DNA of 64,000 nt from Escherichia phage vB_ECOLIGBLB0003, in the sequence record PV654517, one strand, 5' to 3'. Shown piece by piece: positions 44,706 through 45,375 of this stretch; positions within the stretch are counted from its first letter, which is position 1; the number at the start of each line of letters is the position of its first letter. The position numbers and the translations under genes were made by a program. The notes beneath the pieces are model-generated. The model ran no database searches, was not told the DNA's origin, and saw only the letters and a list, made by a program, of their open reading frames with translations.

Positions 44706-44711
44706 TTGATT

Positions 44712-45350
44712 ATGGGGCTTCGGCCCCTATTCTCGAGGAAACAAGTGATTATTTCTAAGTTTGTTACAATAAAACCAAGAAATCATTCAAAAATGTGGTC
44801 GACAATTCTGGGATATAAAGTATCATATCATGATACAGTATCTGTTCCAATAGAATTAATGCCAAAGAATAGTAATAAAATAGTTGACGCTAAATGTGAT
44901 TTGTGTGGTACTAAATTTAGTAGAAGCATTCAACTTTTAAATAGAACACCCACACATGCATGTAGAAAATGTAGCATTAAACAAGTTGCTATTAAAAATT
45001 CGGAAGTTCAATCTGGAATAAGCAGACCATGGCAAAGAGGTGATAAACATCCTCGATGGACTGGCAAAAGAAAAGAGTTTGCATTATATGCTAGTAGAGT
45101 TCATTCTATAACTAAGTCAGCTAAAATAAGAAAAATCTGGTCAAAATGGCCGAATGCTGATAAAATAGGAATGTGCGGCGTAGAAGGTGCTTATCAACTC
45201 GATCATAAAGTATCTATCAAATATGGATTTGATAATTTAATTCCGCCGGAAATTATAGCAAGTGTAAAAAATTTAGAAATAATCACTTGGGAATCTAACC
45301 GAGAAAAGTCAAAAAGAAATAGCGTAGATCTTTGGGATTTACTAGAATGA
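44712..45350 (+). CDS. HNH homing endonuclease inserted between genes 18 and 19 (start uncertain; alternative ATG at 44793)
   Basis: ORF-track start 44706 is TTG; C-terminal HNH motif YQLDHKVSIKYGFDNLIPPEIIASVKNLEIITWESNREKS; Cys pairs CDLCG...CRKC suggest a zinc finger. Confidence 0.7.
   Translation: MGLRPLFSRKQVIISKFVTIKPRNHSKMWSTILGYKVSYHDTVSVPIELMPKNSNKIVDAKCDLCGTKFSRSIQLLNRTPTHACRKCSIKQVAIKNSEVQSGISRPWQRGDKHPRWTGKRKEFALYASRVHSITKSAKIRKIWSKWPNADKIGMCGVEGAYQLDHKVSIKYGFDNLIPPEIIASVKNLEIITWESNREKSKRNSVDLWDLLE
44713..44735 (+). terminator. UUCG-tetraloop hairpin after gene 18 (terminator / RNA-stabilising)
   Basis: GGGGC-UUCG-GCCCC followed by UAUUCUC; same hairpin sequence as at 13539 and 54294. 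Confidence 0.5.
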
Positions 45351-45357
45351 TTCTAAA

Positions 45358-45375
45358 GGCCTGTTTCGGCAGGCC
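45358..45375 (+). terminator. hairpin after the HNH gene
   Basis: GGCCUG-UUUCGG-CAGGCC; no U-tract. Confidence 0.35.

Follow-up and report, generated by a model that had tools for sequence, protein, structure and literature searches.

The window analysed here, a 64,000-nucleotide (nt) stretch of Escherichia phage vB_ECOLIGBLB0003 (PV654517), belongs at the locus under study to a T4-like phage of the genus Tequatrovirus: a 1.6-kb query matched GenBank entry PV654520 at 100% identity and several hundred T-even phages of Escherichia, Shigella and Yersinia at 96-99%. The list of open reading frames (ORFs) gives the gene order 17, 18 (tail sheath), an additional ORF, 19 (tail tube) and 20 (portal), and confirms what a sequence-only reading of the window had reported, namely that an ORF lies in the 18-19 junction, between 44705 and 45458. 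This ORF (44745-45350, plus strand; 201 amino acids (aa), GTG start, TGA stop) is probably a free-standing homing endonuclease gene, the same as ORF19.1 of phage T6. Its product most likely consists of an N-terminal zinc-ribbon DNA-recognition domain and a C-terminal H-N-N beta-beta-alpha-metal nuclease domain, both predicted.

The coding sequence (CDS) extends from 44745 to 45350, encodes 201 aa and has a ribosome-binding site: the Shine-Dalgarno sequence GAGGA (44735-44739, plus strand) lies 5 nt 5' of the GTG and is kept in 11 of the 11 insert carriers. These carriers (eight T6-type, three RB3-type) and 12-13 empty Tequatrovirus genomes, with flanks of 1.5 kb, made up the sample for the junction analysis. 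The sequence-only reading had hesitated between a TTG and an ATG start; the TTG at 44706 sits directly after the gene 18 stop and would open a 214-aa ORF. We assign the start to GTG 44745 because all 42 homologues have an MIISK/MIITK N-terminus at that position, the match to PHROG 5104 (E = 1e-81; labelled 'unknown function') opens at residue 14 of the TTG-ORF, and the 1994 T6 GenBank entry says 'ORF19.1 likely begin by GTG codon'. The end coordinate 45375 given earlier is that of a native hairpin; the CDS stops at 45350. The low coding quality and missing ribosome-binding site assumed in the same reading were not borne out: the ORF is unbroken in 11/11 carriers, and among the T6-type copies 24 variable codons are synonymous only versus four that change an amino acid, which indicates purifying selection. 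The PHROG 5104 match, the intactness in carriers and the mostly synonymous variation together rule out a chance ORF.

Alignment of the T-even 18-19 region (this phage, T4T, T6 and RB6), a check that the sequence-only reading had proposed, yielded the exact boundaries of the insert. The T4 junction reads ...GGT TAA, then TACGGTGC, then ATTCTAAAGGCCTGTTTCGGCAGGCC ATATAAATA; T4T thus has TAA-TACGGTGC-ATTCTAAAGG, with only 8-9 nt where this phage has 645 bp. Relative to T4, the insert comprises 644-645 bp (44706-45349/50, plus strand) in place of TACGGTGC(A). The sequence-only reading had described genes 18 and 19 as adjacent in T4, and in T4T they are indeed separated by a gap of 116 nt without an ORF. 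Across 24 loci the insert measured 644-649 nt when T6-type and 656 nt when RB3-type, against 9 nt at empty sites. A GCA/GCT difference located 7 nt upstream of the stop codon of gene 18, taken at first as a junction marker, showed no association with the insert.

The ORF lies between two hairpins. The upstream one (GGGGCTTCGGCCCC, 44714-44727, plus strand), which by sequence and fold has a C(UUCG)G tetraloop, had been taken for gene 18's own, but it is part of the insert and absent from T4T. The downstream one (GGCCTGTTTCGGCAGGCC, 45358-45375, plus strand; U(UUCG)G tetraloop) is the native T4 hairpin, identical in T4T, T6, RB6 and this phage, and it directly follows gene 18 in T4 and the ORF here. 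The sequence-only reading was right to place a GC hairpin and two TATAAATA late promoters downstream of the ORF and to regard the gene 19 signals as kept. All of these are native T4 sequence, and both promoters are identical in the four aligned phages; the first of the two 5' of gene 19 (45377-45384, plus strand) is identical in T4T, and the second (45436-45443, plus strand; 14 nt before the gene 19 start) is a predicted late promoter in the fPS-2 annotation. The element is therefore a hairpin, a Shine-Dalgarno sequence and an ORF, and it separates the stop codon of gene 18 from the hairpin that comes next in T4. With the insert hairpin added to the native one, gene 18 and the ORF each still end at a stable hairpin. 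Neither hairpin has a U tract, that of the insert hence being no intrinsic terminator, and the region 44400-45600 contained no intrinsic terminators or sigma-70 promoters and no enrichment of them. Sequestration of the ribosome-binding site by a hairpin, as for mobE, was unsupported: a 101-nt fold was no better than shuffles (z = -0.94), and pairing of the Shine-Dalgarno sequence in it was marginal at most.

Population statistics were drawn from GenBank phage records by two-part BLAST queries; a gp19-based scan of IMG/VR provided 15 loci only, too few for this purpose. The whole 1.6-kb query was spanned in 69 of 657 matching phage records, and most of the others matched with 60% coverage over a 962-bp span, which corresponds to the empty site (T4 included). 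Tequatrovirus holds about 70 T6-type and at least 43 RB3-type copies, i.e. about 115 occupied versus about 350 empty sites, the latter an estimate from evenly spaced listings. Presence of the gene in all T-even relatives including T4 had been named as an observation that would speak against an insertion; the gene is absent from T4 and from these roughly 350 records. Presence/absence polymorphism at the precise site was observed directly among close relatives in Tequatrovirus, Gaprivervirus and Dhakavirus. Among Gaprivervirus phages, VR26 has one allele and VR7 another, and VR25, SP18 and many others are empty; UGJNEcP4 is a Dhakavirus carrier. The flanks are mosaic (the right flank differs from this phage at 14 positions in T4T and at 33 in T6), and carriers and empties overlap in flank divergence from this phage, the carriers being no closer to it; the insert therefore does not follow the phylogeny of its flanks.

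The layout of the insertion in Gaprivervirus is unlike that in Tequatrovirus. In VR26 (retrieved locus L095, about 2107-2330, compared with L094 and L096) an extra 27-nt hairpin-containing segment stands right after the gene 18 stop, and the ORF replaces sequence about 110 nt farther downstream, past a shared stretch that contains TATAAATA.

The RB3-type allele, found in RB3, RB5, RB6, RB7, RB9, SHBML-50-1 and others, occupies the same junction with an insert of the same size. At the DNA level the first two-thirds of the RB3-type and T6-type alleles are unrelated and the last third is nearly identical. The RB3-type protein (205 aa) is 49% identical to the T6-type overall and about 95% identical at the C terminus; its first five and last ~75 residues are nearly identical to the T6-type, and the N-terminal ~125 are largely different. 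This contrast suggests either recombination with a breakpoint within the gene or exchange of the recognition module. The RB3-type ORF is without annotation in RB6 and RB7 (in the retrieved RB6 locus L115 it spans 1945-2562; also L116 and L117). Searches with tblastn further retrieved homologues of 30-62% identity from T4-like phages of Enterobacter, Klebsiella, Salmonella, Citrobacter, Serratia, Acinetobacter, Aeromonas, Erwinia and Sinorhizobium, some of whose records carry the label 'putative head morphogenesis protein'. In about 40 IMG/VR contigs a homologue lies between gp18 and gp19, and the gp19 of these contigs is only 30-70% identical to that of this phage.

The sequence-only reading had pointed to the motif YQLDHKVS, to NLEIITWESNREKS and to two Cys pairs; all are present and invariant or nearly so in the 42 homologues. 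The AlphaFold2 model, computed from the 42-sequence alignment, has a mean predicted local distance difference test score (pLDDT) of 88 and two domains joined by a linker (residues ~81-110) of lower confidence (block-mean pLDDT 67-71). The N-terminal domain (aa 1-90; 44745-45014, plus strand) is a CxxC...CxxC zinc ribbon with nearly invariant Cys residues (C51, C54, C73, C76) and a putative DNA-recognition module. It weakly matched the treble-clef model DUF4379 in 16 of the 42 members (best E = 8e-4), the gathering cut-off being exceeded in one relative, and PHROG 12131 'homing endonuclease' matched residues 29-100 of the 214-aa TTG-ORF, i.e. ~16-87 of the 201 aa (E = 1.4e-4). The predicted C-terminal nuclease domain (aa 109-201; 45069-45347, plus strand) consists of two helices followed by a strand (150-154), a second strand (177-181) and a helix (182-188), which form the beta-beta-alpha unit at its end; the model accordingly has the beta-beta-alpha-metal fold of the HNH superfamily. 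Residues Y150, Q151, D153, H154, N176, L177, W182, N185, R186 and K188 are invariant in the 42 homologues. The catalytic-motif pattern of the HNH/beta-beta-alpha-Me superfamily is found here as an H-N-N variant, made up of D153-H154 (45201-45206), N176 (45270-45272) and N185 (45297-45299), and the D, H, N and N are also invariant in 30 more diverse C-terminal domains from unrelated phage contexts. Four of these 30 domains weakly matched PHROG 'endonuclease VII' (E = 1.5e-4) and one weakly matched PHROG 'HNH endonuclease' (E = 5e-4). Structural neighbours in BFVD include proteins named HNH or homing endonuclease, and several family members bear the JGI name McrA. From the fold and the motif we conclude that the C-terminal domain is an H-N-N variant of the HNH/beta-beta-alpha-Me superfamily, a predicted nuclease that curated models miss; as no Pfam HNH model is significant, the assignment to HNH rests on the fold, the motif and the weak PHROG links.

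In other phage proteins the C-terminal domain is joined to NUMOD3 (34 bits, cut-off 20.4) or fused to multiple zinc ribbons, helix-turn-helix domains or long C-terminal extensions. Phage homing endonucleases are known for such a beads-on-a-string design (PMC2988022), and a nuclease domain with a separate, exchangeable DNA-binding module, a feature of free-standing homing endonucleases, is what the two-domain model and the allele swap indicate. The motif 'IPAEII' had suggested the IPA-HNH family (Barth et al. 2023, PMC10448857), but that name stands for proteins of ICP1-like phages that combine an N-terminal HNH with AP2, which is another architecture. The H-N-N domain also occurs mid-protein in 540-580-aa proteins of unrelated IMG/VR contigs (L070, L073, L077, L082), which share a conserved C-terminal region of ~300 aa that ends ...RIWDCG(T/H)(Y/R)R(F/Y), has no Pfam match and gave a faint NCBIfam N-acetyltransferase match (E = 0.007).

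The 3' end of gene 18 (42726-44705, plus strand; tail sheath in the ORF list and in the annotations of T6, T4T and others) holds a recoded, mostly synonymous patch at 44619-44657 (plus strand), 50-90 nt upstream of the 18-19 junction, which we propose as the endonuclease target in empty genomes and the immunity allele in carriers. Over 3.2 kb this phage differs from T4T at 76 positions, 14 of which fall in one 40-nt stretch (~44616-44656) that is also the top window for net carrier-versus-empty divergence. The patch reads GCT AGA AGC ATT AAC TAC ATT ACC TTA AAC TTC GTA GCA in T4 and GCT CGT AGT ATA AAT TAT ATC CAA CTT AAT TTC GTC GCA in this phage; both encode A-R-S-I-N-Y-I-(T/Q)-L-N-F-V-A, and the Q/T codon is the sole non-synonymous one. 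When association with the insert was determined site by site, it was confined to 50-100 nt upstream of the junction (17 variable sites, eight with p < 0.01), and no site elsewhere in 3 kb reached p < 0.01. The codons AAT (T at 44648) and GTC (C at 44654) were present in 11/11 carriers versus 2/12 empties. For the larger set of records an allele-specific 30-mer, which megablast seeds only if both key single-nucleotide polymorphisms match, was joined to a marker specific for the insert or for the empty junction. The 30-mer co-occurred with 64 T6-type inserts (few T6-type records were without it) and with 43 RB3-type inserts. The association is one-directional, carriers being a subset of the recoded haplotype.

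A comparable signature is found in other genera. Over the last 900 nt of gene 18, Gaprivervirus VR26 has 59 differences from two empty relatives, of which 16-17 lie in the homologous 55 nt, where the two empties have only four mutual differences. The changes in VR26 include multi-base synonymous switches (Ser AGC to TCG, Arg CGC to AGG), for which an explanation other than selection at the nucleotide level is hard to find. VR7 and the Dhakavirus UGJNEcP4, both carriers of other alleles, share the same (AGT/TCG) ATA AAT TAT ATC ... CTT AAT TTC codons, and the empty SP18 has AGC ATC AAC TAT ATA. As far as sequence alone can tell, the patch signature thus extends to three genera, Tequatrovirus, Gaprivervirus and Dhakavirus.

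From these patterns we infer nuclease activity, the location of the target and homing, as follows. When a carrier and an empty-junction relative infect the same cell, the enzyme would nick or cut gene 18 of the relative at a site that lies upstream of the junction by about 50-90 bp, within the sequence for the highly conserved gp18 motif A-R-S-I-N-Y-I-x-L-N-F-V-A. Repair by recombination from the carrier genome would copy the ORF and the adjoining gene 18 stretch into the recipient. The carrier itself would be shielded by the synonymous recoding of 44619-44657 (AGT ATA AAT TAT ATC ... AAT TTC GTC in the carrier versus AGC ATT AAC TAC ATT ... AAC TTC GTA in T4). Expression of the ORF is presumably late, by read-through from gene 18 or from TATAAATT, a 7/8 match to the late promoter TATAAATA read from the sequence within the patch (44627-44634, plus strand) and a possible promoter of the ORF. 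Since the element brings its own hairpin and ribosome-binding site and landed upstream of the native hairpin and late promoters, genes 18 and 19 are probably expressed as in T4. Free-standing homing endonucleases of T-even phages are known to target a conserved gene next to their own, with polymorphisms that protect the carrier and co-conversion of a short tract (PMC2988022, PMC2993671), and it is because the pattern equals this known output that homing is our preferred explanation. The precise boundaries, the empty T4 junction, the invariant D-H/N/N motif and the gene 18 patch that tracks the gene all favour the free-standing HNH-type homing endonuclease insertion that the sequence-only reading had predicted.

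T6 ORF19.1, in GenBank since 1994 and annotated as hypothetical, is the same gene at the same site; it is 98.5-99% identical over 201 aa, has the same GTG start and shows no difference of substance. The gene resembles T4 MobA-MobE in that these are also free-standing genes in T-even intergenic regions beside conserved genes and also combine an HNH-superfamily catalytic domain with a separate DNA-binding module. SegF and SegG cleave a nearby gene in the endonuclease-less genome, whereupon the gene and its flanking markers are co-converted, and polymorphisms protect the carrier. The H-N-N variant of the HNH motif predicted here is also that of I-HmuI, the intron nickase of Bacillus phage SPO1. 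In mixed infection MobA and MobE, which nick a target in a gene beside their own, are over-inherited (PMC2988022). In Mob proteins the HNH domain is N-terminal and the DNA-binding region C-terminal (PMC2988022), whereas here, in a comparison by description only, the order is reversed, the nuclease-like domain being C-terminal, so that the Mob architecture is not found; the ORF protein also differs in having no match to any curated HNH model. The mechanism proposed here is the same as for SegF/SegG, intronless homing or localized marker exclusion (PMC2993671), but those proteins have a GIY-YIG fold instead of beta-beta-alpha-Me, and Seg proteins are experimentally proven, the ORF19.1 type being predicted. 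I-HmuI is a modular monomer that nicks one strand (PMC2988022), a design that the ORF protein may share; it differs in being intron-encoded, with an N-terminal catalytic domain and no detectable sequence similarity. A '19.1' gene or a homing endonuclease gene in the 18-19 junction is unmentioned in the 2010 Edgell review of T4 mobile elements and the 2010 Petrov survey of T4-related genomes. Table 5 of the latter has a single 'other HNH', of unspecified identity, under T6 and zero under RB3 and Acj61, both of which carry homologues of the ORF. The ORF19.1 type is probably an uncharacterised member of the T-even free-standing homing endonucleases, in which two features are new: the target site predicted here and an H-N-N domain family that had gone unrecognised.

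Several observations weigh against a homing endonuclease. A search of Pfam-A including PF01844 and PF13392 gave no significant HNH hit, an outcome that the sequence-only reading had itself named as counting against it; no Pfam or NCBIfam HNH model was significant for the ORF protein, its 42 homologues or 10 distant relatives, the best score being that of HNH_4 in one member (E = 0.078). Sequence searches of the PDB with the protein and a full-length profile returned only C2H2 zinc fingers, L31 and mS66, and leucine-rich-repeat matches of the C-terminal profile were spurious, being caused by repeated matching of the 'P.EIG.L.NLQ' stretch. Foldseek found nothing significant in the PDB for the whole two-domain model. 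No functional or experimental study of this gene was found in the literature. The recoded allele is not exclusive to carriers, as the 30-mer is present in 66 of the ~350 empty records; the homing cycle would predict such records, as resistant alleles or as genomes that once carried the gene. Carriers at a much greater distance do not all have the ATA AAT codons, which is expected if specificity diverged along with the 30-40%-identical enzymes. Simple linkage across 50-90 bp could account for part of the carrier-versus-empty association, and the genomes, being related by descent, are not independent samples. Finally, as a secondary explanation, the patch may be a late promoter for the ORF, instead of or besides an immunity site: the recoding in Tequatrovirus carriers creates TATAAATT, whose exchange for TACAAATT is a synonymous change within the patch. 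Against this, Gaprivervirus and Dhakavirus carriers read GATAAATT at the promoter position, which should make a poor promoter by what is known of T4 late promoters, and the associated AAT/GTC sites lie outside the TATAAATT motif.

The pattern was also weighed against explanations that dispense with homing. The gene could be a dispensable accessory gene, vertically inherited and often lost, resident since the early T4 superfamily, with a nuclease or DNA-binding role for the phage (possibly degrading host or competitor DNA, or interfering with co-infecting phages), the patch being linked variation. Long residence would fit the gp18-gp19 homologues in contigs with a 30-70%-identical gp19, and purifying selection on the ORF and the 'immune' allele in 66 empty genomes would fit as well. 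We nevertheless consider this unlikely: presence is patchy within two genera whose flanks are ~92-98% identical, with an identical empty site throughout, two to three very different alleles occupy one site within a genus, and the top local divergence in 3.2 kb adjoins the insert and is synonymous, multi-base codon switches included, which neutral linkage does not predict. Less probable still is an inactive homing endonuclease relic, domesticated as a DNA-binding protein or kept because deletion is rare. No curated HNH model recognises the protein, the canonical metal-binding His is replaced by Asn, and the catalytic domain is without the CxxC pairs of many HNH domains. However, H-N-N variants such as I-HmuI are active nickases, the D-H, N and N are invariant across a very wide family, and the ORF is intact in 11/11 carriers with mostly synonymous variation.

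The distances of the ORF from gene 17 (2 kb) and gene 20 (0.7 kb), together with the label 'putative head morphogenesis protein' in some records, might suggest a packaging-associated HNH endonuclease that acts with terminase, like those of the HK97-like, GVE2 and Geobacter prophage systems. This is highly improbable, because T4-type packaging relies on the gp17 nuclease, and T4 and most Tequatrovirus package normally while missing the gene. Such a gene would be expected in all members and beside the terminase genes; it is polymorphic here, and gene 18 separates it from gene 17. The nucleases of Geobacter (Gme HNH, 4h9d) and GVE2 (5h0o), which act with terminase, are single-domain proteins of ~95 aa with a canonical HNH motif and 9-18% identity to the ORF protein, which has an extra zinc-ribbon domain, unlike the ~100-aa packaging HNH proteins, and whose nuclease-like domain is joined to NUMOD3 modules elsewhere.

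The neighbouring genes are those of a T4-like phage. Gene 17 spans 40862-42694, and gene 19 (45458-45949, plus strand; tail tube in the ORF list and in relatives' annotation) is untouched by the insert. Gene 20 is given in the mechanical ORF list as 46021-47607 with a TTG start at 46021, which makes it four codons too long; the portal gene in close relatives' records has 1575 nt (524 aa), corresponding to the ATG at 46033 here. Several related phages have an ORF of ~192 aa between genes 19 and 20 (L006, 4385-4966; L091, 3526-4104), and three further loci (L010, L011, L019) also have enlarged 19-20 gaps; this phage has no insert there. That ORF begins MYCTY(L/I)TIY...RRYIGST, contains KRP/GKEHP repeats and has the appearance of a Seg-type GIY-YIG endonuclease, its only Pfam match being SegE_GIY-YIG below the cut-off (E = 0.005). 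Endonuclease genes seem to have hot spots at both the 18-19 and the 19-20 junction. PV654520.1, the entry identical to the query, bears the name 'Pseudomonas phage vB_PSGBLB0006' (142 kb, with P. aeruginosa ATCC 9027 as host), and its features under the match are all 'hypothetical protein'. Its sequence is that of an unremarkable Tequatrovirus with 98-99% identity to E. coli phages, and PsgM02F is a second 'Pseudomonas' record of this sort; either the host label or the assembly may be unreliable.

A broader and more tentative proposal is that the ORF19.1 family is an ancient, locus-faithful lineage that co-evolved with the C-terminal coding sequence of the sheath gene across the T4 superfamily. 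Within genera, T6-, RB3-, VR7- and VR26-type alleles with swapped N-terminal modules might compete for the junction, each matched to its own recoded target; the patch might serve both as immunity site and as late promoter (TATAAATT), and the H-N-N family would be one absent from Pfam and NCBIfam.

Free-standing homing endonucleases drive local marker exclusion and mosaicism in T-even phages, and only a handful of them (T4 Seg and Mob) have been studied. The present gene occurs in about one-sixth to one-quarter of sequenced Tequatrovirus and in many other T4-like phages, therapy phages included, and is nearly always annotated 'hypothetical'. A T4 specialist would not be much surprised by a further gene of this kind, and the enzyme-target prediction is directly testable, the pair being the protein encoded at 44745-45350 and the T4 gene 18 codons for ARSINYITLNFVA. 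If true, our interpretation would add an HNH-type family that curated domain libraries have overlooked, would explain the hyper-divergent synonymous patch in an otherwise conserved tail-sheath gene, and would provide a practical marker for recombination among T4-like phages in cocktails.

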